Virus record (IMG/VR): IMGVR_UViG_3300035698_025300 | DNA length: 64,000 bases | Strand: one strand, 5' to 3' | Source: a virus | Part shown: piece by piece, positions 10,765 to 48,773 of the stretch | Layout of the letters: the number at the start of each line of letters is the position of its first letter | Position numbering within the stretch: position 1 is the first letter of the stretch | Position numbers and translations under genes: made by a program | Notes under the pieces: model-generated | Told to the model about the DNA's origin: nothing | Databases searched by the model: none | The model's input: the letters and a program-made list of their open reading frames with translations, nothing else

Positions 10765-10839
10765 TACCCCCAATAGGACTCGAACCTACATATGTCACAG
10801 GGTGTAGACCTGCCGCTAGACCAATTCAGCTATGGGAGT
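10765..10839 (-). tRNA. tRNA-Val(TAC), atypical
   Basis: Stem GCAGG/CCTGT, loop TCTACAC. Confidence 0.65.
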
Positions 10840-10876
10840 GTAATTAAATCTTACTGTATTTAAACCAGAAATAAAA

Positions 10877-10959
10877 TCCGGGCAGCAGGAATCGAACCTG
10901 CGTCAGAGCTATGCTCCCACGGTTATCAGCCGTGTGCCTAACCATTCGGCCACACCCGG
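10877..10959 (-). tRNA. tRNA-Ile(GAT) with long variable arm
   Basis: Loop CTGATAA; variable arm GGAGCATAGCTCTGAC. Confidence 0.8.
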
Positions 10960-11190
10960 TTATTCTTCTACATTAGAAAACATACAAGAGCTAAAAATAT
11001 ATCCAGAATGCTCTTCTAATTCAACTGAAGTATAAGAACAGTCAACTTCTATATTCTTAATAGTATATTCTCGACCTAAAACTAAAATTCTTTTAGCTAT
11101 TCTAATATTACCACTCCAATCTGCTGATGGATGAGTAAACCTGATCCTACTTCTTCTAGGAGTATAAATATCCATATACTGATCTTCCAT
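10960..11190 (-). CDS. hypothetical protein
   Basis: ORF with RBS. Confidence 0.6.
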   Translation of the reverse strand: MEDQYMDIYTPRRSRIRFTHPSADWSGNIRIAKRILVLGREYTIKNIEVDCSYTSVELEEHSGYIFSSCMFSNVEE

Positions 11191-11232
11191 ATTAATCTCC
11201 GAAAAGATTGTTGAACAAGTCTTTAGTTTCTT

Positions 11233-11394
11233 TTACCTTTCTTCAAATTCTGGAGGAGTTTGCTCTTTTTGCATTTTGTATGCTTCAGAACAATATTCGC
11301 ATCCCCTCCCTCCATTGCAGCAATTATTTCCACAATTACCCCATTTCACAAAAGGCTCTCTACAATGACCACAATAATCCCATTCATGTTTCAT
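11233..11394 (-). CDS. small Cys-rich hypothetical protein
   Basis: MKHEWDYCGHC...CC..C..C. Confidence 0.5.
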   Translation of the reverse strand: MKHEWDYCGHCREPFVKWGNCGNNCCNGGRGCEYCSEAYKMQKEQTPPEFEER

Positions 11395-11416
11395 GTTATT
11401 CCTCATCATAATCTTC

Positions 11417-11725
11417 TCATTTATCATAGTCATCGTAATAAAAATCAAGATTATATAAATCTATCAAAATTTCGCATGCTTCTTTTGGACCAAATTGGCA
11501 CAAAAGATACCTGTCAGGGCCGACTATATTAACCCCTGTTGATGGCCCGTCCATAGACAGCATGAATTTGCACCCGTCTTCCAGTTTTACAGGTTCCGAC
11601 TCCCTGTTTGGTCCATACACGGCAAATTTGCTACTTATCTCATATTCTTTTGTGCCGGTCAGCTTAGTAACAGTTGTCCCGTCTGGAATATCTTTAACCT
11701 TCAGCAATATTTTAACTTTTTCCAT
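11417..11725 (-). CDS. hypothetical protein
   Basis: ORF with RBS. Confidence 0.6.
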   Translation of the reverse strand: MEKVKILLKVKDIPDGTTVTKLTGTKEYEISSKFAVYGPNRESEPVKLEDGCKFMLSMDGPSTGVNIVGPDRYLLCQFGPKEACEILIDLYNLDFYYDDYDK

Positions 11726-11749
11726 CTTATACTCCTCATTTTTATTTCA

Positions 11750-11944
11750 TCATACTAGATCATTAAGGTCAACATGAAGTATTGAGCGAAGGTCATCTGG
11801 TAGCGTAACAATCGCGTAACTGTCCGTTTTTATTGCAGTTACATGAACACGACTTTGACTGTCATCAACTTTATCGCTCGGAACAAAGAACGAGTATTCC
11901 CCGGCTTGAGCTTTAACAATTACAGTAAGCTCATCGCTAAACAT
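11750..11944 (-). CDS. hypothetical protein
   Basis: ORF with RBS. Confidence 0.5.
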   Translation of the reverse strand: MFSDELTVIVKAQAGEYSFFVPSDKVDDSQSRVHVTAIKTDSYAIVTLPDDLRSILHVDLNDLV

Positions 11945-12028
11945 TCCTTTTTTTTACAGCACATTTAAGCCACTGTTTCATACTACTTCTCCAATATAAT
12001 TTTAAATTCCTTATGAGACTCTTATGTA

Positions 12029-12327
12029 TTACTGGCTATTTTCTTTTTTAAGCCGGTCTCTTAAATCCATAAGGAAAAATCCAAGGTAATTTTTACCGTT
12101 TCCAGAATTGGCTGGTGATACTCCCCAATATGTATCTCCCCACCAGTTTCCTTCTTCTAAAACTAAATCTCCGGTCGATAACAATTTCTTCCTTATGATT
12201 TAGCTGCCTGATAAGCATGTTCTGTGCTTGGGTGTTCAATTCCATCAAATTCTACAACAGTTGTTTCGCCCATCCAAAAGTTTGACAGAAAGCGGTACTC
12301 GCCCTCAAACTCTGATATTTTCTTCAT
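12029..12327 (-). pseudogene. NADAR (YbiA-like) family gene with internal deletion and frameshift
   Basis: N-terminal FLSNF...STEHAYQAAK, then in another frame IRKKLLSTGDLVLEEGNWWGDTYWGV...GKNYLGFFLMDLR; the usual central segment is missing. Confidence 0.75.
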
Positions 12328-12353
12328 TATTTTTCTCCTATTTTTCTTATTAA

Positions 12354-12426
12354 TGGAGCTACTGGGGGTCGAACCCAGAATCTCATCCGTGCAAAGGATG
12401 CGTCTTCCCATCAAGACCTTAGCCCC
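12354..12426 (-). tRNA. tRNA-Ala(TGC)
   Basis: G3-U70, loop TTTGCAC. Confidence 0.92.
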
Positions 12427-12429
12427 AAA

Positions 12430-12678
12430 CTATATATCAGAACCTATTCTATGTTTCCTGCTATAAGTCTGCCTTTTTGCCACTTCTTCTTGGCTTATTT
12501 GATCTTCTCCGACAAAAGTAACTTGCCATCCATTTTCCCATTTGTCGTTTTTTTTAATTTCAAGAAACTTATCTTGAATTGCAAACTTGGATGGAACCCA
12601 AGCAACATCGTGTAAAATTGTTCCATCTGCCTTTTTTAACTGCAACTTACATTGTTTGTAATATACTATTTTAGACAT
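12430..12678 (-). CDS. hypothetical protein
   Basis: Probable start MSKIVYY within the longer track ORF. Confidence 0.55.
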   Translation of the reverse strand: MSKIVYYKQCKLQLKKADGTILHDVAWVPSKFAIQDKFLEIKKNDKWENGWQVTFVGEDQISQEEVAKRQTYSRKHRIGSDI

Positions 12679-12877
12679 TTTTTCACCATTTAAAAAGGTT
12701 ATTACATTTTTAGTGATATAATAAATATATGAAAGAACCTTTTTGCCCTTATTTTCATCTATGTCACTTTGGTAACAGAGTTCGCAGTATGGAGCGCCCA
12801 TGCAGCATCTGTAAGCATCTAAAATTGCCAGACTTATTTTCTCCAAAAGGACAAAAAGACATAAAACGCAATGAAAA

Positions 12878-12948
12878 CACGCCCTAGAGGAATCGGACCC
12901 CTGCCTACTGGGTTGGAACCAGCCGCACTGCCACTATACTAAAGGCGT
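12878..12948 (-). tRNA. tRNA-Trp(CCA)
   Basis: Loop TTCCAAC, G73. Confidence 0.88.
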
Positions 12949-12990
12949 AAATTTAATCTTTTTCAAATGTCTGGAACAGAACTTTATAAA

Positions 12991-13062
12991 AGCCAGTATA
13001 GAGACTTGAACTCTACTCTCTTGTCTACCAAACAAGCGCATCGCCATCTATGCTTTACCGGC
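12991..13062 (-). tRNA. tRNA-Thr(GGT)
   Basis: Loop TTGGTAG. Confidence 0.88.
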
Positions 13063-13110
13063 ATTGTTGGTGTAATAGTCCATTATACGAAACCGTCAAA
13101 ACACATTCAA

Positions 13111-13183
13111 TCCGCTTACTAGGAATCGAACCTAGAGCCTTCTGGGTAAGAACCAGACACTCTACCAGTTGAGCTATAAGCGG
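13111..13183 (-). tRNA. tRNA-Lys(CTT)
   Basis: Loop TTCTTAC. Confidence 0.9.
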
Positions 13184-13579
13184 TCAATGCCAATGACTAA
13201 ATACCCACAAAGATATGTCATCAACAGTAATTTCTTTTTTAGATAAAACAGAAATCGATCCGTTAGGACCAAAAGCCAAATCCAGAGCGGCAGCGATACT
13301 CTCTCGAAGAGAGTAAAAATCGTAAACCCTTTCAAAATCAGTAGGTTCGAGGCCGCCAGAAGATTCATTCCATTTCTCTAAGATTTGTCCAGCAAAAACG
13401 TACTGTCCATTCATTCCGTCAAAGATTACGTTAATTCCGTTTTTGCCTTCGATATCTGTGTTATACGCGCTGTCAAAATATTCTTCACATTTCTCATATG
13501 CGTCTTCATTGTCATCTGCCATTTCTGGGTAGGGCAGCTTAACTCCCAGTATGGCATAGTTCATCAATTCTGTGCCCAT
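13184..13579 (-). CDS. hypothetical protein
   Basis: 131-aa ORF with RBS and an upstream TTGCAG-17-TATATT. Confidence 0.7.
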   Translation of the reverse strand: MGTELMNYAILGVKLPYPEMADDNEDAYEKCEEYFDSAYNTDIEGKNGINVIFDGMNGQYVFAGQILEKWNESSGGLEPTDFERVYDFYSLRESIAAALDLAFGPNGSISVLSKKEITVDDISLWVFSHWH

Positions 13580-13865
13580 AAAAATCTCCTCGTTCTGTAT
13601 TCGTATAATATAAAGTTATGCAGATTCACCTGCAAGACAGTCGTTTTTATTCAGCTATTGAGACCTTCTTTTTGTAGAGCCTTAAGAGCAAATTGGTATG
13701 CGGTATCTACCGCTCAGCCTTTTTGGAATAAAAGTCTTTGAGCATCTTTGGGGATTGATTCTCCACTTGTTGTGAATATAGCGAAAATACCAAAATCGTT
13801 CTCAGCAACATCGTAAATGTTATTTTCTTTACTCATTTTTTGCTCCTTATTGATATTTTTATCAA

Positions 13866-13938
13866 TAACCCCGCCGGGAATCGAACCCGGAGTCTTCCGA
13901 TTAAAGGTCGGATGCTTTGCCAATTAAGCTACGGAGTC
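13866..13938 (-). tRNA. tRNA-Lys(TTT)
   Basis: Loop CCTTTAA. Confidence 0.85.
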
Positions 13939-13946
13939 ACAAAATA

Positions 13947-14033
13947 TAGGCCGGACAGGATTCGAACCTGCGATGGTGCTTTCGCAACGCCAGATTAAAA
14001 ATCTGGTCCCTTCAGCCACTCGGACACCGGCCC
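13947..14033 (-). tRNA. tRNA with TTT (Lys) anticodon on a type II, Ser-like body
   Basis: D-arm TGTCCGAGTGGCTGAAGGGA, loop TTTTTAA, 18-nt variable arm, A73. Confidence 0.8.
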
Positions 14034-14256
14034 GTGTTTTAGTGAGTGTTGAAGGTTTACCTTGTTGATGAACATAACTCATCTCGTTTCTCCTTTTGTT
14101 ATTAAAACCTATCCATAAAAATACTCTGCCATTGCAACTTCATATGTTTCTCCATCAACCTCGATGGAATTATCTCGTTCTCTGCCAATTAAAATCATTT
14201 GCAATTTGGCTTGCTCTTTTGCTCTATTTTCTACTTTTTTCATTAATTCGTTTAAT

Positions 14257-14643
14257 TCAATTCTCATCCTTAGCCCCCTCTGGGAATATGTAGTCCATAG
14301 CCACTTTTTCTATGTCTTCTCCATTTCCTATTAAAGTATAATAAATTTCACCATTCTCGTCAAAAGTAGAAGAAATAAGATTATTTTTTTCCATTTCTCT
14401 TAATGCATATCCCATTAGGCGCATTTCTAGTTCTTCTGCCATATCTTCTTCTGTAGCTTCGTGATTTCCGTTATTCCAAAAATATACTAAAATTGAATTT
14501 CCAAAATCAACTACACAATCAGTATATGTTTTAAGGTCTTTAAAATCTTCTTTTTTGATTTCATATTCATAAATTGCTTTTAAGCATTCTTCGTATCTTT
14601 TCAGTGATATCTCTTCGTATGGACATTTTTCAACATTACTCAT
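14257..14643 (-). CDS. hypothetical protein
   Basis: 128-aa ORF, RBS, promoter TTGCAG-17-TATAAT upstream. Confidence 0.7.
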   Translation of the reverse strand: MSNVEKCPYEEISLKRYEECLKAIYEYEIKKEDFKDLKTYTDCVVDFGNSILVYFWNNGNHEATEEDMAEELEMRLMGYALREMEKNNLISSTFDENGEIYYTLIGNGEDIEKVAMDYIFPEGAKDEN

Positions 14644-14722
14644 TTATCAACTCCTATTATGAAAGTGTATTACATTATATAGCGAACATGTAAAAACTGC
14701 AATAATAGGACATACTTTATTA

Positions 14723-14794
14723 AGCCGGCTGCGGGAATCGAACCCGCTTATCTGGCTTACAAGACCAGCACATTACCATTTATGCTTAACCGGC
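14723..14794 (-). tRNA. tRNA-Thr(TGT)
   Basis: Loop CTTGTAA. Confidence 0.92.
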
Positions 14795-14805
14795 GTAAAT
14801 AAAAA

Positions 14806-15054
14806 TATCAATACTATAGCCAGGATTCTGTTATCAGCATACATTTATCTCTTTCTGCGTCAACAAAAAGGCAAGAAAACTTGCCGCCCTCGACCCGCCC
14901 ATTGTAGAACAGCTTACCATCTAGGACTGTTTGAGGTTGCATATCGGGTCAATTCCCTATACGTGGTCCAAGCGACTTACATCTCCCACATTAAAGCTAG
15001 ATATGTCCTGAGCTTCCTCTATCACGATCGTGACAGCGTATGCTCGCATTGATA
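14806..15054 (-). ncRNA. rnpB: compact RNase P RNA
   Basis: P1 TATCAATGC/GTATTGATA, P2 AGCATAC/GTATGCT, P3 hairpin, P4 GAGGAAGCTCAGG paired with 3' ACAGAATCCTGGCTATA, helix ATCTAG/CTAGAT. Confidence 0.85.
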
Positions 15055-15057
15055 CAA

Positions 15058-15132
15058 TGGCTAGAGCCGGATTTGAACCGGCGACACCCGCATTTTCAGT
15101 GCGGTGCTACTACCAGACTGAGCTATCTAGCC
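15058..15132 (-). tRNA. tRNA-Phe(GAA)
   Basis: Loop CTGAAAA. Confidence 0.92.
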
Positions 15133-15173
15133 GAAAAGTAAACAACTATTCTTTAAGAGTTTAGGATAAACAG

Positions 15174-15247
15174 TGGACCGCGCCGGGACTCGAACCCGGA
15201 ACCTTTTCCGTGCAAAGGAAACATTCTCCCAATTGAAATACGCGCCC
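15174..15247 (-). tRNA. tRNA-Ala(TGC)
   Basis: Loop TTTGCAC; one bulged base in the acceptor stem. Confidence 0.85.
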
Positions 15248-15255
15248 ATTTATAA

Positions 15256-15327
15256 TGGAGCCTCCCGGGATCGAACCAGGTCCTGTGGTACTTCGCACCA
15301 CCGCTTAACCTTTTAAGCTAAAGCTCC
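15256..15327 (-). tRNA. tRNA with GAA at the anticodon position (Phe?), atypical loop
   Basis: Stem GTGGT/ACCAC, loop GCGAAGT. Confidence 0.55.
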
Positions 15328-15384
15328 AAAACCTATATTTAATTTTCAATACATTTTTATAAATTTCTATCAAATTTATGCATT

Positions 15385-15419
15385 AAAAAAGCCTACCGAA
15401 CTCATTTGTGCGGTAGGCT
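15385..15419 (-). terminator. attenuator terminator 1
   Basis: AGCCTACCG...CGGTAGGCT followed by a T-run; homologous to the 20487-20521 hairpin. Confidence 0.85.
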
Positions 15420-15458
15420 CATAAAAAATAACGTAAAGCTCTAACGCACTTCCTCCGC

Positions 15459-16833
15459 CAAGCACACTTCGATGGGGCACCCGTAGACGAGAAAGAGGCA
15501 GTGCTTCCATATCGGGGATTTGAGAAATACCAGTACATAGCCTACAAGTTCGGGCGCATTGCCAGAAAGCTGAACTACGTCAACAAATAGGCGCTATGGC
15601 ATTCCGAACAGACCAGGCCTGCTTTGGTCTTTGGTCTTCGGCTTCTGTCCAGCATTCCCGCAATGGTCGATGTCGGCAGGATCGTAGTTTGTCCAAAGGA
15701 CCTCGGTACGCTTGCCTTTCGTGGCGTGGTTGGTGCGTTCAGCGCTCCGAGTCCTATACCACTGGCATTCGGGATACAACTCTTCCATCAGGTCGCAATC
15801 GTAGTTGGAGATGGCAACGTGACCCACCACTGTATTCAGGACTGCTGCAAGCGCCCGGTGTTCGTCATCTGTCATTTCGAAGCCATAGGCCTTCGTGTCG
15901 CCTCGGGTTGCGTGGATATATGGAGGATCACAGTAGAAAAGGGTATCGGGCGAATCATATAGGAGGATAACGTCAATGGCTGGACGGTTCTCTATCTGAA
16001 CACGAATCAAGCGTTCCGCGATCGCAGGCAGTTGGTCAACTCCTCCGAGCCAACGGCTGATTACACCACTCATGCCGCGGCGACTAGTGTTCTTGCAGTT
16101 CGCCCACCTGCCTATCGTGGCTGTCTGTGCCAGGCCTGTTCGGACTTGGCGAGCGCGAATATAGAAGCGCCTGGCTCGTTCCAGAGGAGGTACATCCGGG
16201 TCCAAGACACATGCACTGCCAAATTCCTCTCTCGAAAAGGGCGTGAGAGCGATGGCCTCGATTAGCTTGTCCTTCTCATCTCTGAGTACGCGGAAGAAAT
16301 TGCAGACTTCACCGTCCAAGTCGTTGTATGTTTCGATGCTGGCGGGAGGCCGATTCAGAAGTACGGCGGCCGACCCGGAGAACGGCTCGCAATAGTGATG
16401 GCATGGCGGCAGCAATGGAAGAAGCCAGTCTAAGTGGCTAAACTTCCCCCCATACCAGCCGAATGGGATCAGCTTCCGGCGTCCGAGCCGCTGTACGGGC
16501 GGGGCCAGCTTTCGTCCGTTCTTCTTTCTTTTCATTCCGTCCATGTGCAATTCCAAAAGGCAGTAAGTGATTTTCTAACTGTGCGTTACCGCCATTCCTA
16601 GGTGGTTAGGAAGTCGGTCCAGCAGTATTGATCAACTGTAACCCGTGCCAGCGGAAATTGCGAGGCTTTTCGTTACAGGCCCTACCAGATCGGACATCGG
16701 ACGAGCCCATTCCGCCGGGCGTCACGAGGCCTTGGAAGGCGTCTCCACTGGAGCCGCCGAGGCAACTCGGGATCGAAGGCCTTGGACCACTTCGCGCCAA
16801 CGCCTCTGGAGTTCCGTTTCGATGGAGCTCCGC
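15459..16833. mobile_element. 1375-bp GC-rich captured bacterial DNA segment flanked by a 6-bp direct repeat
   Basis: CTCCGC at 15453-15458 and 16828-16833; abrupt GC shift; truncated gene 3' ends at both sides. Confidence 0.8.
15594..16556 (-). CDS. DNA adenine methyltransferase (Dam/D12-class N6)
   Basis: FGWYGGK, YCEPFSGSAAV, YNDLD, FYCDPPY. Confidence 0.92.
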   Translation of the reverse strand: MELHMDGMKRKKNGRKLAPPVQRLGRRKLIPFGWYGGKFSHLDWLLPLLPPCHHYCEPFSGSAAVLLNRPPASIETYNDLDGEVCNFFRVLRDEKDKLIEAIALTPFSREEFGSACVLDPDVPPLERARRFYIRARQVRTGLAQTATIGRWANCKNTSRRGMSGVISRWLGGVDQLPAIAERLIRVQIENRPAIDVILLYDSPDTLFYCDPPYIHATRGDTKAYGFEMTDDEHRALAAVLNTVVGHVAISNYDCDLMEELYPECQWYRTRSAERTNHATKGKRTEVLWTNYDPADIDHCGNAGQKPKTKDQSRPGLFGMP

Positions 16834-16898
16834 TGTAAAGGCTTTAACCGCCCAAATAGTTTTAAAGAACATGTTGTTACGTGCGTTTTCCATGCTTC

Positions 16899-16927
16899 AT
16901 TATATGATACTCAAAACAGCAGTGCAA
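16899..16927 (-). promoter_or_regulatory. sigma70 promoter of leader 1
   Basis: TTGCAC-17-TATAAT with AT-rich upstream element. Confidence 0.8.
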
Positions 16928-17031
16928 CAACTTTTTTTTAAAAAATATTTCAGCTCAATCATAAAGGTTTTTACCCATATATTAAGTATTTATACTTTAG
17001 GCTACAATATTAATTAAGGGGTTTTCAATAT

Positions 17032-19092
17032 ATGTCCAATTTTAATAATTACAAAGGTTTTAAGATATTAGCAGGAACGCCAACAGGCGATGGTGGAAAA
17101 GCTTTAAATGAAAATTTCACCTACGCAGGAGATACGATAGAAGACGCAGGAGATACGATAGAAGAAAATAGTAATGACATCTTATCTCTAGAAAATAAAA
17201 GCACAATCAATTATTGGAGTTTTGACCTTTTGGGAGACTCAATATCAACTGTTAGCGGGAACCTGTGGTCTGGAACAATCACATATGGTAGCTGGGCAGA
17301 AATGGCTGCAATATTTTCAAACCAAAGGGTGCAGCTTGCTAATAGATTTGCTTCTGGCGGGTATAGCTCTCAAGAGATTATGAACAACTATTTATCTAGT
17401 GCTGTAGCTTCAGATTCTGATATGTGCGTCATCCACTGCGGGATTAATGATTGGGGGGATGGTATAGTTTCAACGACAACACTCCTTAATATTAGGACCA
17501 TGACAGATGCTCTAATAGCCGTTGGAAAAAAGGTCATTCTAACGACATTAATGCCAGATGGCTCGACGGCGGGACTGGACTCCAAGTGGCATGAATGGTA
17601 CCTGATTAACGAAGGAATAAGATCAATGGTACTAGAATATCCCGGTAAAGTTGTTTTAGCTGATTTCGCTAATGTTGTAATCGATATAGATGCAAATGTA
17701 AGTGGGCCGAGAGGAGATTCTATGGGTCATCCGTCCTGGAAGAGTGAATATAGTACCGACCTCGTACATCCAAAAGCTGGCCCAGCTACAAGAGAAATGG
17801 GTCGAGCACTATTAGAAGCCTTTGAGAGATTTTCTATTCCAAACGAGTATTTTTGGCTGGGCTCTACTGGGTCAATTAATGGTGTCCACAACCCGCTTTG
17901 TTTTGGAGAGGACGGGAGCTTGGCTGGAGGGGCGACCGGAACGGCTCCAGACTGGTGGAAATTTGAGGGGAATTCTGATTGGGTTTCGTATGTATCAGCC
18001 AGAACAGGAAACCAAAGCCGAAGCAATTGGTTCTCAGCAACTATGGACGCCACAGTTGCGCCGGCAAGCTTAACACAGCCTTCTATAAGACTCCAGGATG
18101 GCGTGTATAAAGTATACCTCGACATAGAAATACCAATAGGAGCAGAAGCCAATAACTCTGATAGCTATATCCAATTATTTTATCAAGACTCAGATGGAAG
18201 TCCAATTGAAGTTTATAACGCTAGATATTTTCAAAACGAGGCATTAATAGATTCCGAAAATGGATTTTCTGGAACGCTCAAAGGTAATGTAACCATCAAC
18301 AGCGGTGATACTAATGTTAAGTTACTTTTACTCATTTCTGGTATTTCTGATGTTTCTGTTTCTGGACTAAGATTCGAAACCGTCACAGATAGCTCTTCTG
18401 TTAGAAATGTATTAGATTTTGACGGGGCAGGATTCATCGGCACTGACCTGACTGTTCCTATTGTTTCGGGCGTTTTTCCGGCTACTACTGGATGGACGAT
18501 AGAAGCCTGGGTGAATGCGGTAGAAGCTAGAATAGAAAGCGGAATTGTTACAAATAAAATAAGAGGAATATGTAGCGGATGGCAAAATATATGTCCGTTT
18601 TTTGGGATTAATGAAAATAATTATTTTGAACTATCTGCTCACATAAATAATAATATCTTTAAAGACGATAGCTCAGTTCTTGCCCCAGATGGGTCTGGCT
18701 ACGGGTGGCATCATTACGCTGTTACAGTTTCAAATAATGGAGGGAATACTGATATTATATACTATTATGACGGGATAAAAATAGGATCAACTGTCACTAC
18801 GGCGGGAAACCTGACAAACAACTCCGCGTATGAAGGATTAAATTATATTGGGAAATCTGCTGGATCAGTTGGGATATTAGGGTCTATTGCGGGTTTTGGA
18901 ACACGCCCATCTCCAGCGACACCGGCGGAAATAGCTACGGCATACGCAGAAGGGCTAGGGACTTTGACAGATTATGACATGTACCTAAGATGCGATGACG
19001 GATCTGGAACTACTGTCACAGATTCAACGGTAAATGAAAATGATGTAACATTGCCAGCATCTGGAGCTGCTTGGGGAACTGACGTTGTTTGA
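17032..19092 (+). CDS. SGNH/GDSL hydrolase plus LamG-like domain protein, probable virion appendage
   Basis: GDSIS, CGINDW, D.VHP; C-terminal WTIEAWV...WHHYAVT LamG pattern. Confidence 0.75.
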   Translation: MSNFNNYKGFKILAGTPTGDGGKALNENFTYAGDTIEDAGDTIEENSNDILSLENKSTINYWSFDLLGDSISTVSGNLWSGTITYGSWAEMAAIFSNQRVQLANRFASGGYSSQEIMNNYLSSAVASDSDMCVIHCGINDWGDGIVSTTTLLNIRTMTDALIAVGKKVILTTLMPDGSTAGLDSKWHEWYLINEGIRSMVLEYPGKVVLADFANVVIDIDANVSGPRGDSMGHPSWKSEYSTDLVHPKAGPATREMGRALLEAFERFSIPNEYFWLGSTGSINGVHNPLCFGEDGSLAGGATGTAPDWWKFEGNSDWVSYVSARTGNQSRSNWFSATMDATVAPASLTQPSIRLQDGVYKVYLDIEIPIGAEANNSDSYIQLFYQDSDGSPIEVYNARYFQNEALIDSENGFSGTLKGNVTINSGDTNVKLLLLISGISDVSVSGLRFETVTDSSSVRNVLDFDGAGFIGTDLTVPIVSGVFPATTGWTIEAWVNAVEARIESGIVTNKIRGICSGWQNICPFFGINENNYFELSAHINNNIFKDDSSVLAPDGSGYGWHHYAVTVSNNGGNTDIIYYYDGIKIGSTVTTAGNLTNNSAYEGLNYIGKSAGSVGILGSIAGFGTRPSPATPAEIATAYAEGLGTLTDYDMYLRCDDGSGTTVTDSTVNENDVTLPASGAAWGTDVV

Positions 19093-19099
19093 GTTTTTA

Positions 19100-19173
19100 T
19101 ACCCGTACACGGATTCGAACCGAGATTAACAGCTTGAAGGGCTGTCGTCCTAAACCACTTAGACGATACGGGC
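19100..19173 (-). tRNA. tRNA-Glu(TTC)
   Basis: Loop CCTTCAA. Confidence 0.88.
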
Positions 19174-19177
19174 GTAT

Positions 19178-19942
19178 TTAGTATCCAATTTTATTATTAA
19201 ATATAGGTTTCATCCTACATTTAGAATCACCAGTAAAATGTAAAAGATCAAAATCCATAAATAGTTTTTTTGTTTTTTTTGTAGACGGGTAATAGCCAAT
19301 TTTTATATTACATTCTACTCCATCATAAATATTGTTGTATATCATATAATTAAAAGCTGTTTGATCATATGAGTTTGAACTTCTATATCTTTTGCCATTT
19401 TTTATTAAATCAAGCCAAATATCAAACATATGAGACAAATATTTAGAATTTATTGCGAAAAAACCAGCATTTATCCCACGAATACCACTCATTTTATTTA
19501 ACCGTTTTCTACTAAACATCTGATTATGCCAGGAATTGTTTTTCAGAAGACAGTCTTCTAAAACGTATTTAACTTTCCCATTATCTAATCCATTAAATAT
19601 ATTATGAATTTTTTTACAAAATAAAATATCTGCGTCTACAAACATTATGTTTTTATACTTATTTGGGTCTATCATTCTACCACAAGCTATCTTCATATAT
19701 CGATCATCATTTGGAGTTTGCTTAACTTTGAAAATTTTATAGTATCCGCTATTGTCGCACTGGCAATCTGTGAATATTATTATATCTCCATCAAATTTTC
19801 CTTTCTTCCTAGCCGAGATAGCGCACATTTTTGCCATCTCAAAATGTTTTTCTCCAAGACCGACAGTATACATAACACTGTTTTCTTTTGATTTATTTGT
19901 ATAATGCAAAGTGACTCTTTCCATCATTTTATCATGCCACAT
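19178..19942 (-). CDS. GT-A glycosyltransferase (GT8-like)
   Basis: FVDADIL, INAGFF, DQTAFN, HFTG. Confidence 0.75.
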   Translation of the reverse strand: MWHDKMMERVTLHYTNKSKENSVMYTVGLGEKHFEMAKMCAISARKKGKFDGDIIIFTDCQCDNSGYYKIFKVKQTPNDDRYMKIACGRMIDPNKYKNIMFVDADILFCKKIHNIFNGLDNGKVKYVLEDCLLKNNSWHNQMFSRKRLNKMSGIRGINAGFFAINSKYLSHMFDIWLDLIKNGKRYRSSNSYDQTAFNYMIYNNIYDGVECNIKIGYYPSTKKTKKLFMDFDLLHFTGDSKCRMKPIFNNKIGY

Positions 19943-19980
19943 AATCAGCGTTTATCCTTTACGAAACTACAAATAAAGAA

Positions 19981-20055
19981 CACCCCTAATCGGATTCGAA
20001 CCGATGTTAACAGACTGAGAATCTGTCGTCCTAAACCTAACTAGACGATAAGGGC
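19981..20055 (-). tRNA. tRNA-Glu(CTC)
   Basis: Loop TTCTCAG. Confidence 0.9.
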
Positions 20056-20074
20056 ATTACGCGAAAAATGTCAA

Positions 20075-20169
20075 CTCCCTAGCTAGGACTCGAACCTAGA
20101 ACCTGCTGGTTATTTATTGCGCTATTTAACGCATACAGCCAGCCGCTCTACCAATTAAGATACTAGGGA
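20075..20169 (-). tRNA. tRNA-Asn(GTT) with a 22-nt intron in the anticodon loop
   Basis: U1-A72, G73; removing 20113-20134 gives loop CTGTTAA. Confidence 0.75.
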
Positions 20170-20175
20170 ATAAGA

Positions 20176-20266
20176 CTCCAGGGGGAGGACTCGAACCTCC
20201 ATACCGTTCTAGACGGATTACGTCTGATTAACAATCAGGTCACTTACCCAATTAGTGTACCCCAGA
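20176..20266 (-). tRNA. tRNA-Asn(GTT) with long variable arm
   Basis: Loop TTGTTAA, 22-nt variable region, U1-A72, G73. Confidence 0.8.
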
Positions 20267-20345
20267 ATATGTAATATTTACTTGTCATTATTTCGCACTG
20301 ATGTTTCTTTTAAACATCTTTCCAGTTTATATCCATCAAAAAAAG

Positions 20346-20418
20346 GGCGACTAACCAGATTCGAACTGGCCCCCACAGATTCACAGTCTATTATGCTAAC
20401 CACTACACCATAGCCACC
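20346..20418 (-). tRNA. tRNA-His(GTG)
   Basis: G-1:C73, loop CTGTGAA. Confidence 0.92.
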
Positions 20419-20440
20419 GTATCAATATTTAATTTTCAAA

Positions 20441-20477
20441 ACAACGCGGCGCCTTAACCAATTGGGCCACGCTCACC
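20441..20477 (-). pseudogene. 5' half of a tRNA (His-like), truncated at the anticodon loop
   Basis: GGTGAGCGTGGCCCAATTGGTTAAGGCGCCGCGTTG with no 3' half. Confidence 0.6.
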
Positions 20478-20486
20478 ATGTATATT

Positions 20487-20521
20487 AAAAAAGCCTACCG
20501 AACGTTTCTGCTCGGTAGGCT
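20487..20521 (-). terminator. attenuator terminator 2
   Basis: AGCCTACCGA...TCGGTAGGCT followed by a T-run. Confidence 0.88.
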
Positions 20522-20543
20522 CATAAAAATCTATGCTTATGAC

Positions 20544-20621
20544 TTAACGCACGAATACCTCTTCAGCGGTTTCTTCCGCTTCGTTATGATTAAATTCATT
20601 ATGGTTTCGTGCAAAAGTCAT
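20544..20621 (-). CDS. leader peptide 2, MTFARNHNEFNHNEAEETAEEVFVR
   Basis: RBS AAGGA; 25 codons between promoter and terminator. Confidence 0.8.
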   Translation of the reverse strand: MTFARNHNEFNHNEAEETAEEVFVR

Positions 20622-20641
20622 AGTAATTTTCCTTATGTCTT

Positions 20642-20670
20642 ATTATATGATACTGAACATCAGCAAGCAA
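20642..20670 (-). promoter_or_regulatory. sigma70 promoter of leader 2
   Basis: TTGCTT-17-TATAAT. Confidence 0.8.
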
Positions 20671-20716
20671 CTTCTTTCTTAAAAAATCTTTGTTCGTTCT
20701 CTATTTATAAAAATTA

Positions 20717-20787
20717 AGCTCTCGGAGGGGGTCGAACCCTCATCTCTGGTGTACGAGACCAGTATGCTCCCCTTGCACCACAAGAGC
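20717..20787 (-). tRNA. tRNA-Thr(CGT)
   Basis: Loop CTCGTAC. Confidence 0.88.
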
Positions 20788-20830
20788 GTCAAACAACATT
20801 ATATTATAGTATATTATTTTTTATATGCAA

Positions 20831-21895
20831 TTATTTTCTATTAAAAACAACAGAGGCATAACATCTTGACGGTCGATCTCTTTTTATCCTATACTTGGAG
20901 ATACTTTTAGTGTCTTTGCTTAAGTGTTCCCAAAAATCGTATAAATTGTTTCTATAATTTTCATTATATATAAGATGAATTAATAGGGATGAAATTCCTT
21001 TTGGGCTAAGATACTTTTCCCATGTTTCTTTTGATTTTTTTGCAAAAGGTTCTGGGTCTATTTCTTTTAAGACCAAAAGATCTGATGGAGAGTTAATATA
21101 TACATAATGTTCATTGGGGTAAAATGGGAACGGATAGCATGGTATATAGTTAAAAGCCAAAGGCATGCCGAGTGACATATATTCCGTTTCCCTGTAGCAT
21201 TTTCCATCATATTTAGTACTTGAACCGCGAAGGGAAAACCCCCATTTACATTTTTCTAAACTGTCTACATATTCGGATTTATTTTTATGGAATTTAGGGT
21301 AAAATAGTCCAGATTTTTTAGCGTGATCAACCCAAGGTCTTCTGTGGCCTCTATTTCTATCCACAGTAAAAGCAGAGCTTCCTAAATATTTGTGATTTTC
21401 GTTCTTCCATAAAAATCTCCCAACAGGAAAATTTTTACTAACCCCATAAGCAAAAGGTAAAATCTTAAATCCATATTTTTCTTCAATAGACGTAAACAGA
21501 TCTTTATGTTTAAGTGTATATTGCAATATGAAATAAAATTTGATACCTCTAAATAGTTCTTCATAATTCTCAACAAAACTGTGAGATATGTGTGGTACGT
21601 CGTGGCCGTCTAATATACAGTTTATATTATTTATTCTTATTTTATATAAATGATCACCAATATATTTCATTTTTCTAACGCTTCTCTTCAACAACTGCGA
21701 AACGGTTACGTTTTTGAAAATTCCACTATTCCGAAAACAGTCATTAAAATAACGAAAATTATAGTTGCGACCAGGGTTTGACACAGTTAAACTGTGTTGA
21801 GTTTTTTCAAAATGACTAAAATCATATTTGCTAAACACTCTATTATTAAAATGATATTTTAGATTAGACCGTCTAGACATAAAACCTCTTCGCAC
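20831..21895 (-). CDS. putative glycosyltransferase (GT-B-like C-terminus)
   Basis: EYVDSLEKCKWGFSLRG...CYRETEYMSLGMP pattern; gene context. Confidence 0.55.
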   Translation of the reverse strand: MRRGFMSRRSNLKYHFNNRVFSKYDFSHFEKTQHSLTVSNPGRNYNFRYFNDCFRNSGIFKNVTVSQLLKRSVRKMKYIGDHLYKIRINNINCILDGHDVPHISHSFVENYEELFRGIKFYFILQYTLKHKDLFTSIEEKYGFKILPFAYGVSKNFPVGRFLWKNENHKYLGSSAFTVDRNRGHRRPWVDHAKKSGLFYPKFHKNKSEYVDSLEKCKWGFSLRGSSTKYDGKCYRETEYMSLGMPLAFNYIPCYPFPFYPNEHYVYINSPSDLLVLKEIDPEPFAKKSKETWEKYLSPKGISSLLIHLIYNENYRNNLYDFWEHLSKDTKSISKYRIKRDRPSRCYASVVFNRK

Positions 21896-26228: not shown

Positions 26229-26973
26229 TACGTGTTACCTCTTTATATTTATTCTTTAATCTTCTAAAATTTGATATATGGTCCCAGCCAAACTTTTTGA
26301 ATTTAACTCTTTTAAATGACCTGCCTGTCCTGGCGGCTATATAGTATAAATAAGTATCTTGAGAAGGGATAGGAAGAATCTTTTTACCATAATATTTCTC
26401 AGATAGTGTAGCAGCCTCCTGAGCCCATCCGGTTTTACAGAAGAACAGCCAGGAAATAATCCTTGAATGACATACTCTTTTTGAGTCTGGATCGTAGTTA
26501 AAATCAAGACGAGGGCTGTATTTTAGACTATCTACATCATCTCCCCAGTTGTCTAATGTTTGTATTGCATTAGCGGGCTTAGTGTATCCCCATGGGTTAG
26601 ATATAAAAACATGCCCCCCAGTAAACCAATCATCAAAAATCCATTTACGAGAGTCTGTAGCTAATGTGTCTGTGTCTATCTTTAAATACCATTCAGTTTC
26701 TACGTGTTGAGGGGCATAGACTAAAGATGTTAGCATTCCAGATCTCTGATCAGGAAAATCGATATTGTCCCAGGGTACCAACTTCACATCGTGTCCCCTC
26801 AAAAAATCTAGCCTGTCATCATTTTCGTTAATTTGTTTTTTGTCAAACATAATAACAATCTTTTTAAACTGGTTAAATTCTTTACCCTTCAGCCCAAACC
26901 ATGTTTTCCAAGAGAGTTTCAATTCGTCTAGGTGGTGATCGTCTATAGCTGTTACTAGTGTTATATTTTTCAT
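26215..26973 (-). CDS. putative GT-A glycosyltransferase
   Basis: WYLKIDTDT DxD; context. Confidence 0.55.
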   Translation of the reverse strand: MKNITLVTAIDDHHLDELKLSWKTWFGLKGKEFNQFKKIVIMFDKKQINENDDRLDFLRGHDVKLVPWDNIDFPDQRSGMLTSLVYAPQHVETEWYLKIDTDTLATDSRKWIFDDWFTGGHVFISNPWGYTKPANAIQTLDNWGDDVDSLKYSPRLDFNYDPDSKRVCHSRIISWLFFCKTGWAQEAATLSEKYYGKKILPIPSQDTYLYYIAARTGRSFKRVKFKKFGWDHISNFRRLKNKYKEVTRNEQI

Positions 26974-28283
26974 TTATTTTTAGGGGCCTTCTCTTGTCCA
27001 TACCATATTATGTTTTTCTCTTTTTCTTTGGCTCTAAACAATTTTCTGGCTTCGTCAACATTTTCTTCTAGATCTTTTAGTTTAGACTGTACATCTAATT
27101 CCGATAAGCCGGTCACACCATTGTTGACATCTGCCTCAAAACTAGATCTCTCCATTTTAGCCAAGTCTAGATTTTTTCGTAGTCTATCTAGTTCTGCTTT
27201 CACTTTGTCTTTATCGCCTTGATTTTTATTTTTTGCTTTTTTCTTTTTCTTTTCATTTGCTTGACGATCATAAAGCCCTACAGTTCTTTCTTCGTCTATA
27301 TTTGGCATATTTTGAGTTGCTATTTGAATTGCTTCTTCAAAATCAATAAAAGGGAAAACTTTCAATTCTGAATCAGGATTGCAGTTAAATATATTAAATT
27401 GATGCTTTTCGAATACAGGCTTTAGTTCAGTAAGGCGTTCTTTGAGCTTTTCGTATGTGGCATTATTGCCTTTTACTGAACTCGGAGACCTACCCTGATT
27501 AAAATGGTATGTATACTTTTCGCTCATATTGAAGTCAACACCTAACATAAAGACCTTGCGAATTCCTAAAAAGAATAGTAATCTCATAGTTGGAAGAAAA
27601 ACAGATCTTCCTCCGCCCCACTTGGAATGGTCTCCCCAATTAATAGTATCTTCAAACAAGAATTGACTAGCATCGAACTTTTCGTTTCTTCGATAATAAA
27701 AAACGTTTGGACAGTCGCCAACTTTAATGTCCATTTCTTTCCATCTATCGTTGTCAAATAAATTTTTATCGGCGTGTGCAAAAGGAACTATTTTAGTGAT
27801 TTTCGGATCTAACCAAATAGATTTCATAAAATGGGTAGGATTATCTACGCAGCACCACAAGTTAGGACGAAAGCTTTTTGGCGAATTGTTCATACCAATT
27901 GTGATAAATCCTGGACGATTGAGAAGCTCTTTGTTTTCAATTTTTGCGAAGCTGGGGCCGCTAGCTACTAAGAATGCCGATGTTCCCCTATAGATATCGC
28001 CTAGCCACACAGGATGGCCATCTCTAGTAAATAGTATGGGGGGAGACTGTATGTACTGCCCCACGTTAAAGCCCACATGACGCTCTCTCCCGTGTCTTAG
28101 AGAAGTGTGATCGGAAGCATCTCTCCCGTTGCCGCCAGGAGCCTGATGTATAATCCCATCAACTATCTTCCCATCTGGGGTTTGCCTACCAATTTTATGA
28201 TCATTATCTCCTATCTGTTTCTCTTTGGAGACATCAATTTTTCTTACCTCATCCGTCATTATTACTCCCAATAATCTTCCCAA
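26970..28283 (-). CDS. Maf/DUF115-like glycosylation-associated protein with coiled-coil tail
   Basis: FLVASGPSF, IGMNN, LGVDF..HF, FNCNP.S.L..FP. Confidence 0.65.
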   Translation of the reverse strand: MGRLLGVIMTDEVRKIDVSKEKQIGDNDHKIGRQTPDGKIVDGIIHQAPGGNGRDASDHTSLRHGRERHVGFNVGQYIQSPPILFTRDGHPVWLGDIYRGTSAFLVASGPSFAKIENKELLNRPGFITIGMNNSPKSFRPNLWCCVDNPTHFMKSIWLDPKITKIVPFAHADKNLFDNDRWKEMDIKVGDCPNVFYYRRNEKFDASQFLFEDTINWGDHSKWGGGRSVFLPTMRLLFFLGIRKVFMLGVDFNMSEKYTYHFNQGRSPSSVKGNNATYEKLKERLTELKPVFEKHQFNIFNCNPDSELKVFPFIDFEEAIQIATQNMPNIDEERTVGLYDRQANEKKKKKAKNKNQGDKDKVKAELDRLRKNLDLAKMERSSFEADVNNGVTGLSELDVQSKLKDLEENVDEARKLFRAKEKEKNIIWYGQEKAPKNK

Positions 28284-33988: not shown

Positions 33989-34061
33989 CAGGCCCACGAG
34001 GACTCGAACCCGCGAATAGAAGGACCAAAACCTTCTGTGTTGCCAATTACACTATGGGCCT
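33989..34061 (-). tRNA. tRNA-Gln(TTG)
   Basis: Loop TTTTGGT. Confidence 0.88.
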
Positions 34062-34071
34062 ATATTAAAAA

Positions 34072-34145
34072 TCGGAACGGCCGGAATCGAACCGGCGTTC
34101 TCCTAGTCCCGAACTAGGCGAATTACCTAACTTTCCTACATTCCG
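34072..34145 (-). tRNA. tRNA-Pro(CGG)
   Basis: Loop TTCGGGA. Confidence 0.9.
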
Positions 34146-34150
34146 TCTAA

Positions 34151-34223
34151 CTGCCTCGACAGGACTCGAACCTGTATAGACTGATTCAAAGTCAGTTATG
34201 TTAACCAATTACATTACAAGGCA
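34151..34223 (-). tRNA. tRNA-Gln(TTG)
   Basis: Loop CTTTGAA. Confidence 0.9.
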
Positions 34224-34230
34224 TCATGAA

Positions 34231-34303
34231 TCGGAGCGAGAGGATTCGAACCTCCGTCTCGGCGCCCCAAACGCCGTACTAAACCAAGCTCAGCTACGCT
34301 CCG
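34231..34303 (-). tRNA. tRNA-Pro(TGG)
   Basis: Loop TTTGGGG. Confidence 0.9.
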
Positions 34304-34383
34304 TAAACATACTTTAATTATAATGATAGCATAAACCGCAAGTGCGAGCCATTTAGTAAAAAGAGAGTGACCCGCTACAGCGA

Positions 34384-34449
34384 TTATTGCTGATCGGGGT
34401 CTGGTTGTGTATCTTGATCGACGGTCTGATTGTAGTTAATCTTTGTCAT
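34384..34449 (-). CDS. leader peptide 4, MTKINYNQTVDQDTQPDPDQQ
   Basis: 21 codons immediately after a consensus promoter and before the Pro/Gln tRNAs. Confidence 0.75.
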   Translation of the reverse strand: MTKINYNQTVDQDTQPDPDQQ

Positions 34450-34468
34450 AATACTCAACCTTTAATTA

Positions 34469-34497
34469 ATTATAGGATACTTAAAGATCCTTGTCAA
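34469..34497 (-). promoter_or_regulatory. consensus sigma70 promoter of leader 4
   Basis: TTGACA-17-TATAAT. Confidence 0.9.
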
Positions 34498-34509
34498 TAA
34501 CTTTTTTTA

Positions 34510-34584
34510 TAGCGGGAGATGGATTCGAACCACCGACCTGGAGCTTATGAGGCTCCCGAGCTAACCTAACTGCTCTATCCCGCG
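34510..34584 (-). tRNA. tRNA-fMet-like (CAT)
   Basis: C1/U72 mismatch, A11-U24, loop CTCATAA; lacks the three consecutive G-C anticodon-stem pairs. Confidence 0.8.
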
Positions 34585-35291
34585 ATGTGGATTATGTATC
34601 TCTACGTGACAATTTCTGCACAAAAGAATACATTTTGATAATTCTTCTAAAACTTTATCCCAGCTACATGTTAATATATTAGATATATTATGCTTTTTAT
34701 CATGAATATGATGAAATTCTAATCCATCTAATATATCGTAGCCGCATATGCTACATTTATTTCCTAAAATTTTTATTGCTCTTATTTTTCTGTTTATATA
34801 ATTACTTCGTCTTTTCTTTTGATTCATATGATATTGGTTATGACATCTGGAACATAAAAGAATACATTTTGATAACTCTCTTTCTATTTTGTTCCAACTA
34901 TGACCTATAATATCATATATATTAAATTCTTTTTCATTTTCATGATGGAATGTTAGTGCTGCATAATTTTTGCAGTATCCACAGAAAGAACATTTAGAAC
35001 CTTTCATTTTTATAGCTTTTACTTTATTCTTATATTTTATATCTTTAATTGCTATATTTAAACATTTTTTGCATTTATTATATTGCCCATTTCGAAATTT
35101 TTCAATATTTGTTTCTCTACAGACTATACATCTATAAAATCTTTTTAAGTTTTTATATTTAGTTGTTAATTTATACTTTTTAATAAACGACAAACCGCGC
35201 TGGCTCTTTTATTTATTTTTTTGCCAATTTCTCTTTGTGAAAAGCCTTTTTCGGTTAAATCCTTCAATTCTAAATATATCTTATTATCCAT
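34561..35291 (-). CDS. free-standing homing endonuclease: HTH plus two HNH repeats, with an A5 frameshift near 35180
   Basis: MDNKIYLELKDLTEKGFSQREIGKKINKRASAVCRLLK then -1 frame; two CS.CGY...FHH...ELSKCILLC..CH repeats. Confidence 0.8.
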
Positions 35292-42943: not shown

Positions 42944-43019
42944 GCCGCGTAGGCAAATTGGTAAAGTCTGTTGGTTCAAAACCAGCGTAATTTTGGAGGT
43001 TCGATTCCTCTCGCCGGTA
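42944..43019 (+). tRNA. tRNA-Leu(CAA) duplicate with altered acceptor stem
   Basis: Body identical to 42776-42852. Confidence 0.75.
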
Positions 43020-48029: not shown

Positions 48030-48773
48030 TTATTTTCCTGTGACGGCGGTTATGAAGTCGCAAGCATCTAATACGTTATTTACTGATGGGAAATCGCATG
48101 TGCAGTTTTTCGTGCAGATTACTTGTTTGACTGCATTTTTGTCCAGTTCAGCAGGGGCTGTGTCTACAGCACAGAATCGAACTCCGATCTTCTGCCAGTT
48201 TTTTACGAGATCATCAATAGGCAGACCTGGTAGTTCTTTTACCGCATCTATGACAACTACGACATTGTAACCTCTGTTTGCTAGCCCCACTACCGCATCG
48301 TTAACACAGACATTTGTTGCAACCCCATAAACGAATATGGTTGTTTGTTTTGTTGCAACATCATTAAGGACTTTTTCTGTGAAAGGGTTGCCATCGAATA
48401 CATTAAATGCGTCTTTTAGTAATAGTATGTCGTCGGCTAGCTTAACTTCCTCCGAACTGTAAGATTGATCTTCCCAATCTATTACCAGGGCGTGTTCACC
48501 TGGGAACGTTTCTTCGATTAGGTTTACCCCGTCTGTATTCCTCATGCAGTGTGGGGGGAATTTCGACATAAAATCTGGTTCGTCTGATAGCTCTTCAGAG
48601 TCTTTGTTGTGACAGTCTGCTGTGCTGATGACTGTAATGTCCTGCTTTTTCGATAGTTTCGTTAGAAAAACTAGGTTGGCCTTTATTCCACCCGCTCCGT
48701 CAATTGATAGTTTCCCATCAGAATTCATAAAATCTTTTTGCGTGTCTACGTTCCAGAAAATAGCCTTATTCAT
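48030..48773 (-). CDS. pncA: nicotinamidase
   Basis: VDTQKDFM, DCH, FPPHC, GVATNVCV; operon context. Confidence 0.88.
   Translation of the reverse strand: MNKAIFWNVDTQKDFMNSDGKLSIDGAGGIKANLVFLTKLSKKQDITVISTADCHNKDSEELSDEPDFMSKFPPHCMRNTDGVNLIEETFPGEHALVIDWEDQSYSSEEVKLADDILLLKDAFNVFDGNPFTEKVLNDVATKQTTIFVYGVATNVCVNDAVVGLANRGYNVVVVIDAVKELPGLPIDDLVKNWQKIGVRFCAVDTAPAELDKNAVKQVICTKNCTCDFPSVNNVLDACDFITAVTGK

Follow-up and report, generated by a model that had tools for sequence, protein, structure and literature searches.

The enterobacterial attenuators trpL, hisL, pheL and leuL pair a short ORF, led by a Shine-Dalgarno (SD) sequence and rich in codons for the sensed amino acid, with alternative RNA helices built on a common strand, and the position of the ribosome is expected to choose the helix. 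The first hairpin of trpL carries the stop codon in its loop. The tRNA genes of phages are commonly regarded as constitutive codon-usage helpers or as spares against host tRNA-cleaving defences. Here we describe a giant-phage locus in which a leader with this SD-led, codon-rich, strand-sharing architecture stands ahead of tRNA genes rather than biosynthetic enzymes.

The window (the whole 64,000-nt stretch of DNA analysed) is AT-rich, at 37.8% GC, and carries four codon-matched leader units, leaders 1–4, of which leader 4 is the subject of this report. The runs in which the sequence of the window was found are DNA runs of salt-lake metagenomes, and RNA runs were listed neither for it nor for the relative L014; coverage in the DNA runs was low and identical, and they were uninformative on population variants. 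We consider it likely, at a probability of roughly 0.6, that leader 4 is translated and regulates the Pro/Gln tRNA cluster that follows it, with one hairpin (B) as antiterminator and a second (C) as terminator being the most likely wiring. Support for the leader-peptide reading comes from the conservation of the ORF and of both hairpins, from codons that co-vary with the tRNA cargo, and from canonical, codon-matched attenuators elsewhere in the phage group.

Leader 4, its promoter and its tRNA cargo

Table 1. Features of the leader 4 unit in the window, with the corresponding leaders of relatives and codon-matched leaders on other contigs of the phage group.
Feature	Source	Position	Strand	Details
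tRNA-Met(CAT)	window	34509..34585	(-)	directly upstream of leader 4; ARAGORN and Rfam (58 bits)
Sigma-70-type promoter	window	34469..34497	(-)	TTGACA 34497-34492, 17-nt spacer, TATAAT 34474-34469; score 12/12
Shine-Dalgarno AAAGG	window	34463-34459	(-)	ahead of the leader 4 ATG
Helix A	window	34403..34460	(-)	SD and AUG segment (34460-34446) pairs with codons 12-16 (34417-34403)
Leader 4 ORF	window	34384..34449	(-)	21 codons and TAA; ATG at 34449, TAA 34386-34384; peptide MTKINYNQTVDQDTQPDPDQQ
Hairpin B	window	34369..34401	(-)	GACCC/GGGUC + CAGC/GCUG; -14.3 kcal/mol
Hairpin C	window	34336..34383	(-)	core GCGGGUCA/UGGCUCGC; -16.4 kcal/mol
tRNA-Pro(tgg)	window	34303-34231	(-)	ARAGORN and Rfam; begins eighty nt after the leader 4 stop
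tRNA-Gln(ttg)	window	34223-34151	(-)	ARAGORN and Rfam
tRNA-Pro(cgg)	window	34145-34072	(-)	ARAGORN and Rfam
tRNA-Gln(ttg)	window	34061-33989	(-)	ARAGORN and Rfam; end of cargo 33989..34303
Leader and cargo	L113			MMNINYNLIISVDQNTRPDPDQQ (short form ...VDQNTRPDPDQQ); Asp(gtc), Pro(tgg), Gln(ttg), Pro(cgg) homologue with anticodon AAG, Gln-like tRNA
Leader and cargo	L114			MKKVNYNLVFSGDQNTQPDPDQQ (short form ...GDQNTQPDPDQQ); Pro(tgg), Asp(gtc), Pro(tgg), Gln(ttg)
Leader and cargo	L012			MNNNIIFFDAPANAQPDPAQI (short form ...DAPANAQPDPAQI); Pro(tgg), one gene, Ala(tgc), Asp(gtc), several genes, Gln x3
Hairpin C core	L113			GCGGGUUG/CAACCCGU
Hairpin C core	L114			AGCGGG..UCU/AGA..CCCGCU
Hairpin C core	L012			UCUUGCGGGA/UCCCGCGAGA
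Hairpin D stems	four orthologues			UCGC/GCGG; CCGU/GCGG + U6; CCG/CGG; CGCG/UGCG
Codon-matched leader	L028	1516-1623		...LVLSSLYCLSGHSLSLGYYSL before Tyr, Leu x3, Ser x3, Cys, Gly
Codon-matched leader	L065 and L075	4718-4816; 5023-5109		...KITGKAIKAKTTVAGVGTV... before Ala, Ile, Gly, Thr, Val, Lys
Codon-matched leader	L078	6353-6445		A/F-rich leader before Phe, Ala, Ala
Codon-matched leader	L098		(-)	...FFYCCF... before Phe, Tyr, Cys
Codon-matched leader	L058	2945-3031		independent codon-matched attenuator unit

Residues 8-21 of the leader 4 peptide comprise five Gln, four Asp and two Pro, giving the 11 of 14 counted in the preliminary description, and the four Asp codons that it reported are GAT, GAT, GAC and GAT. 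Among 495 ATG-started ORFs of 15-60 codons in the six frames of the window, ranked by 14-residue stretches, leader 4 is the single best for {P,Q} (7/14; runner-up 6) and for {P,Q,D} (11/14; runner-up 8). It also ranks first of 641 small ORFs for its own downstream amino acids when 12-residue windows are used, and leaders 2 and 3 likewise come first for theirs. Leader 4 matches no Rfam family, and peptides resembling it elsewhere in the fetched loci are chance matches only. Rfam leader families and T-boxes are absent at gathering score from the whole window; between 28000 and 36000, at E up to 1, only tRNA and tmRNA models reach gathering score, and the four other weak matches there are unrelated and lie outside the leader.

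A perfect TTGACA-17-TATAAT promoter had been claimed for this unit; it is present with a full score and is the sole perfect match on both strands of the 64-kb window. Three copies of the extended promoter motif AGTATCNTATAAT are present in the window, precisely at leaders 1, 2 and 4.

ARAGORN recovered the order Pro, Gln, Pro, Gln that the preliminary description had given for the genes downstream of leader 4. The window as a whole holds 37 tRNAs called by ARAGORN, three called by Rfam only, and one tmRNA. Rfam-only tRNAs at 9120-9191 (-) and 42944-43019 (+) comprise one with a CAT anticodon and one third Leu copy, and a second tRNA-Asn(gtt) at 20074-20170 (-), which plain ARAGORN misses, has a 22-nt insert at position 37. 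ARAGORN, which had been proposed as a check on the tRNA cluster, was run over the window and returned no tRNA-Asp. Neither tRNA-Asp nor tRNA-Tyr is called in the window by ARAGORN or Rfam; the claim that Asp is the only amino acid without a tRNA therefore holds as far as Asp is concerned, and its exclusivity depends on a D-armless Tyr candidate, because neither program calls Tyr.

Syntenic relatives and the predicted tRNA-Asp

Relatives were reached through two neighbouring genes, one encoding a 437-aa MptE-like protein (26970-28283) and the other the 203-aa gene beside leader 4. Homologues of the MptE-like protein lie on giant-phage contigs, among them L012, which comes from a 114-kb JGI contig and is near-identical to L013 (4 mismatches over the locus). 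Synteny between L012 and the window covers at least 12 genes, including the divergent 203-aa gene that adjoins leader 4. Homologues of the 203-aa gene gave two closer relatives, L113 (70% identity) and L114 (68%), and this neighbouring protein is ~45-70% identical across the three leader-bearing relatives. All three have the layout tRNA(CAT), leader, tRNA cluster, with synteny on both sides and tRNA(CAT) scoring 42, 35 and 38 bits in Rfam for L113, L114 and L012, respectively (Table 1). A macro-domain gene lies 3' of the tRNA cluster in both L113 and the window, and L114 has the same spacer length and layout as the window.

From the composition of leader 4, the preliminary description had predicted that relatives carry a tRNA-Asp(GTC) in this cluster. 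The gene is present in 3 of 3 leader-bearing syntenic relatives (L012/L013, L113 and L114), and a prediction made from the leader only was thus true in relatives, so that leader codons can be used to infer the gain and loss of tRNA genes. Two further loci, L115 and L116, have Met-Asp-Pro tRNAs at the same place and no leader. The window's four tRNAs correspond to the last four of L113 in order, and L113 has its tRNA-Asp ahead of them. Because every leader-bearing relative carries tRNA-Asp(GTC), parsimony points to its loss from the cluster in the window lineage; it may have been lost from this cluster and possibly lies elsewhere in the phage genome. We infer that the Asp codons of leader 4 either date from the time when tRNA-Asp belonged to this cluster or continue to serve that tRNA.

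Two candidate traces of the lost gene were rejected. The best match in the window to the L012 tRNA-Asp (48173-48190) falls inside a 247-aa ORF, and a search of 28-36 kb at E up to 1 returned no other remnant; the segment UGGCUCGC is not the stump of a deleted tRNA-Asp, as the stretch from leader to Pro is arranged alike in L114, which also contains a segment homologous to it.

The leaders of the window, L113 and L114 have start, frame and stop in common and differ by one 6-nt indel, which is in frame. Every pairwise comparison among these three gives codon-position differences of 3/3/7 (first/second/third), and synonymous changes occur at Asn, Tyr, Leu and Thr codons. Frame, stop position, in-frame indel and third-position excess fit coding constraint and are indirect signs that the leader 4 ORF is translated. 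Its 3' half is identical in sequence to L113 and L114. Early codons have changed in the window lineage relative to L113, L114 and L012 (L to Q at codon 8 and N to D at codon 13); the Gln enrichment is in step with the second tRNA-Gln, whereas the Asp codon was gained despite a cluster that lacks tRNA-Asp. The window leader is out of step with its own cargo, scoring 6/10 against that cargo and 9/10 against the cargo sets of the relatives. By comparison, the four Ala codons of the L012 leader occur in that leader only, and L012 is the only one of the relatives with a tRNA-Ala, so that leader and cargo have clearly changed in parallel.

The promoter of leader 4 sits within ~35 nt that are absent from L113 and L114, whose promoter lies upstream of their tRNA(CAT). 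In the window, a 210-aa HNH-type ORF (Pfam HNH, weak; 34561-35193, (-)) terminates 25 nt inside tRNA-Met(CAT), and the relatives have no HNH-type gene at their tRNA(CAT). Together, the HNH ORF and the ~35 extra nt with the promoter look like a homing-endonuclease insertion followed by promoter replacement.

Several observations concern the wider distribution of these genes. At L113 528-601, ARAGORN calls a Leu(aag) tRNA with ~78% identity to the window tRNA-Pro(cgg), the anticodon loop having changed from TTCGGGA to TTAAGGG; to judge by this alignment, it could be either an anticodon-shifted copy or a decaying one. L019 (57% identity in the MptE-like protein) carries tRNA-Pro, tRNA-Gln, a tmRNA and tRNA-Glu at the equivalent place (3425-7175), each directly behind protein genes, and has no leader, so the leader unit is not universal in the phage group. 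Four other loci with 203-aa gene homologues (L117, L118, L120 and L121) contain no leader 4 orthologue. Against GenBank phages, blastn matched the tRNAs only. IMG/VR searches with the macro-domain protein, a degenerate leader peptide, a tRNA-island protein and the terminator motif of leaders 1 and 2 returned nothing relevant, and motif CAACCNGAYCCCGNNCAGNNNTAATC was found in IMG/VR on two L012-type contigs only. A single match to that motif in a Limosilactobacillus genome of the genome collection was set aside as chance. The macro-domain homologues L002-L007 (59-64% identity) were rejected as relatives, having no other gene in common and no tRNAs. A PDP-rich mini-ORF in L020 (MPDPDPDPQQQ), in a GC-rich coding region of a contig without tRNAs, was taken to be a chance occurrence.

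Other codon-matched leaders in the phage group

Leader 2 is the single best small ORF in the window for its own set His/Asn/Glu (10/14), and leader 3 for Leu/Tyr/Cys/Ser (14/14). Leader 1, MENARNNMFFKTIWAVKAFTAE..., precedes Phe, Ala, Phe, Thr, Lys x3, Thr, Trp, Ala, Ile and Val x3, and its 13 central residues are precisely the amino acids of the next 14 tRNAs. Leader 1 (15329-16940, (-)) is split by an inserted GC-rich island of ~1.4 kb, after which EVR and a stop codon follow; the terminator stems of leaders 1 and 2 are identical.

On other contigs of the group, small ORFs ahead of tRNA clusters are top-ranked in their locus for the amino acids downstream (Table 1). Across eleven leader-cargo pairs, the diagonal score is 92, compared to a mean of 43.8 and a maximum of 79 in 20,000 permutations, a result that gives no exact probability because homologous leaders are not independent. 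In L065, L075, L078, L058, L098 and L028, the final codons supply the 5' arm of the antiterminator, its loop holds the stop codon, and a strong terminator that has a U5-6 tract stands downstream of the antiterminator. In L075, L078 and L028, the 3' arm of this stop-codon-loop hairpin also belongs to a strong terminator (-17 to -24 kcal/mol) followed by a U5-6 tract, and it is on account of the shared arm that we assign the hairpin as antiterminator there. A full-text literature search found no publication on codon-matched leaders before phage tRNA clusters.

The tRNA island of the window (9100-20800) lies between genes 20831-21895 and 6730-7947, which are adjacent in L012 (14309-16259), and the main tRNA island of L012 is ~40 kb away from the equivalent site. 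Judging by this gene order, whole tRNA islands move within the phage group. A tRNA with a CUA anticodon (ARAGORN 'Pyl-cta') occurs in L029 (1482-1553), from a relative's 114-kb contig, and at position 1010 of L048, from another relative; it may be an amber suppressor, which would be a hint of TAG recoding in these phages.

Competing hairpins, their proposed wiring and known attenuators

Helix A, with the pairing listed in Table 1, is part of the minimum-free-energy structure in each of the four orthologues, the window included. In hairpin B, the 5' arm consists of the last five sense codons of leader 4, GAC CCC GAT CAG CAA, its 3' arm is GCUG..GGGUC, and the stop codon lies in its loop. Elsewhere, hairpin B has energies of -13.3 (L113), -15.4 (L114) and -19.1 to -19.5 kcal/mol (L012). 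In hairpin C, the 3' arm of B (UCGC, GU, GCGGGUCA) pairs instead with a downstream segment (UGGCUCGC, AC, GCGG) that resembles the 5' arm of B, and UUUAUGCU follows. The preliminary description had called the two helices mutually exclusive; both exist, and the strand they share is 34369-34383.

Helix A and hairpins B, C and D recur in all four orthologues, each folded alone. The core of C shows compensatory changes, affecting both sides, among the orthologues (UCA/UGG, UUG/CAA, UCU/AGA), and D is a tiny GC hairpin at the 3' end of C (-2.3 to -3.5 kcal/mol; window -3.5) with U-rich sequence behind it. In the alignment, 80% of cells in helices A and B are paired (helix A 68-88%), compared to 29-45% with the partner strand slid; the covariation score of A and B was reached by 37 of 500 shuffles, a statistic that is weak because there are only four orthologues.

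A terminator scan found no canonical intrinsic terminator between the leader 4 ORF and tRNA-Pro. Hairpin C of the window has a 16-nt loop and a tail of merely UUUAU, in agreement with the weak U-tract noted earlier, and a canonical U-tract follows C only in L113 (U6) and B only in L012. In the window, a U-rich stretch, ACUCUCUUUUU, lies 3' of B, with U5 beginning 6 nt away, and in L012, hairpin B has 16 base pairs and runs immediately into CAUUUCUUUUCUUU.

Leader 4 would probably act as a translation-speed sensor for tRNA production. In the working we propose, host RNA polymerase would start at the perfect promoter and one ribosome would load on the short leader. A ribosome held at the early Gln/Asp codons (Q8, D11, Q12, D13) would leave B intact and transcription would continue; a ribosome running to the leader's end would cover the arm of B, freeing its 3' arm to pair downstream as hairpin C, which ends at the U-rich tract, and transcription would stop. 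The position of the ribosome would thus select the hairpin and set how many polymerases reach the tRNA genes. Attenuation and its wiring, including termination itself and its direction, are what we infer from these features. As the preliminary description proposed, B is most likely the antiterminator and C the terminator, because the sister units with canonical terminators (L075, L078 and L028) have such a topology; with B as antiterminator, the sensing codons would therefore be the early ones, the patch enriched in the window lineage.

Several findings weigh against this reading. No canonical terminator precedes tRNA-Pro, B resembles a terminator in L012, and C carries its only canonical U tract in L113. 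In the window, L113 and L114, every Pro codon of the leader falls within or adjoins the 5' arm of B, and a Pro stall in that arm would favour C, so that the preferred wiring gives less tRNA-Pro upon Pro stalling. Furthermore, the Asp codon at position 13 was gained without Asp cargo, the leader fits the relatives' cargo better than its own, and L019 has tRNA-Pro and tRNA-Gln at this place without a leader. The Asp codons might instead monitor the cell's total Asp-tRNA pool, that of the host included, with the unit detecting host tRNA depletion and the sensor outliving or reaching beyond its cargo; we regard this as a tentative idea, more doubtful than not. If true, starvation or an anticodon-nuclease defence would switch on the phage tRNA genes, rather than simple product feedback, and giant phages would control their tRNA supply by multivalent leader peptides that co-evolve with the cargo.

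The function could be as we favour and the wiring different: B with its U-rich tail would be the terminator, a ribosome stalled on QPDPDQQ would block B and allow read-through, and C would be secondary. The matched codons are indeed densest in the 5' arm of B (7/7 in the window, L113 and L114; 6/7 in L012), a U- and pyrimidine-rich stretch lies 3' of B in 4 of 4 orthologues, the L012 hairpin with its 16 base pairs, -19.1 to -19.5 kcal/mol and adjoining CAUUUCUUUUCUUU resembles a terminator, and the sign of regulation would be homeostatic for Pro. However, the first U run begins 6-14 nt past the stem in the window, L113 and L114, the conserved and covarying hairpin C would be left without a role, a ribosome at the stop codon also covers the arm, which leaves discrimination to dwell time only, and the topology is opposite in the sister leaders with canonical terminators. 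We consider this arrangement unlikely.

Equally improbable in our estimate is that leader 4 is a relic, an attenuator in an ancestor whose regulation was lost in this phage, with a strong promoter newly inserted, a weak stop, tRNA-Asp lost and the tRNAs expressed constitutively. The promoter within the ~35 nt absent from L113 and L114, the HNH endonuclease ORF that overlaps the upstream tRNA-Met, the want of a canonical terminator and the Asp codons without Asp cargo would all fit such a history. Yet the ORF is undisrupted, as are helix A and both hairpins B and C, the 3' half of the leader sequence is identical to that of L113 and L114, the early codons have become richer in Gln in step with the second tRNA-Gln, and L114 keeps the same spacer length and layout.

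A classical four-segment attenuator of the trp type, with B as the 1:2 pause hairpin, C as the 2:3 antiterminator and D (3:4) with the U tract as terminator, is slightly less plausible still. It accounts for the GC-only mini-hairpin D and the U-rich sequence at the 3' end of C in 4 of 4 orthologues, places the stop codon in the loop of the first hairpin as in trpL, and gives a homeostatic sign for all matched codons; but D, at only -2.3 to -3.5 kcal/mol, is much weaker than intrinsic terminators usually are, and a ribosome at the stop covers just the first 2-5 nt of the core strand of C, which is then not clearly blocked. Finally, an ordinary promoter with a chance ORF, or an independent small peptide gene with no link to tRNAs, is very improbable: short ORFs are common and for {P,Q} alone leader 4 is only narrowly ahead of the runner-up (7 vs 6), but position, length and frame are kept in three relatives only ~45-70% identical in the 203-aa neighbour protein, the composition tracks the tRNA cargo, the ORF overlaps conserved RNA helices, and neither an Rfam match nor more than chance peptide similarity in the fetched loci offers it another identity.

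If the reading of leader 4 as a regulatory leader is right, phages would gauge their tRNA supply and produce tRNAs as needed. A leader out of step with its own cargo is the best material for asking whether it is the phage's own tRNAs or the host pool that is read, and because the unit is small (~160 nt) and has a consensus sigma-70 promoter, it is directly testable in reporter constructs.

Compared to trpL, hisL, pheL and leuL, leader 4 is phage-borne, its putative terminator is non-canonical and it matches no Rfam leader family. Like the ilvGMEDA leader (Ile/Leu/Val) and thrL (Thr/Ile), it combines codons for several amino acids (Gln, Pro and Asp) in one leader; unlike them, its cargo consists of decoding tRNAs, and its codon mix shifts with the tRNA set among relatives, as with Ala in L012. 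The pyrBI attenuator resembles the arrangement with B as terminator, in that the last codons form the 5' arm of the terminator and the ribosome prevents the hairpin; however, pyrBI senses UTP via polymerase pausing and its ORF spans the whole terminator, whereas leader 4 ends within the hairpin, its stop codon being in the loop, and its codons are specific for amino acids. T-box riboswitches likewise sense the state of the tRNA pool and control read-through into translation-related genes, but they bind uncharged tRNA via a specifier codon without translation, whereas leader 4 has an ORF, complete with start and stop and showing in-frame indels and third-position changes, and no Rfam T-box match. 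In the pheM leader of E. coli pheST (Phe-tRNA synthetase), a leader peptide also controls a component of the decoding machinery; there the product is a protein enzyme and one amino acid is concerned, whereas the leader 4 unit yields tRNA itself and would thereby feed back directly on tRNA supply.
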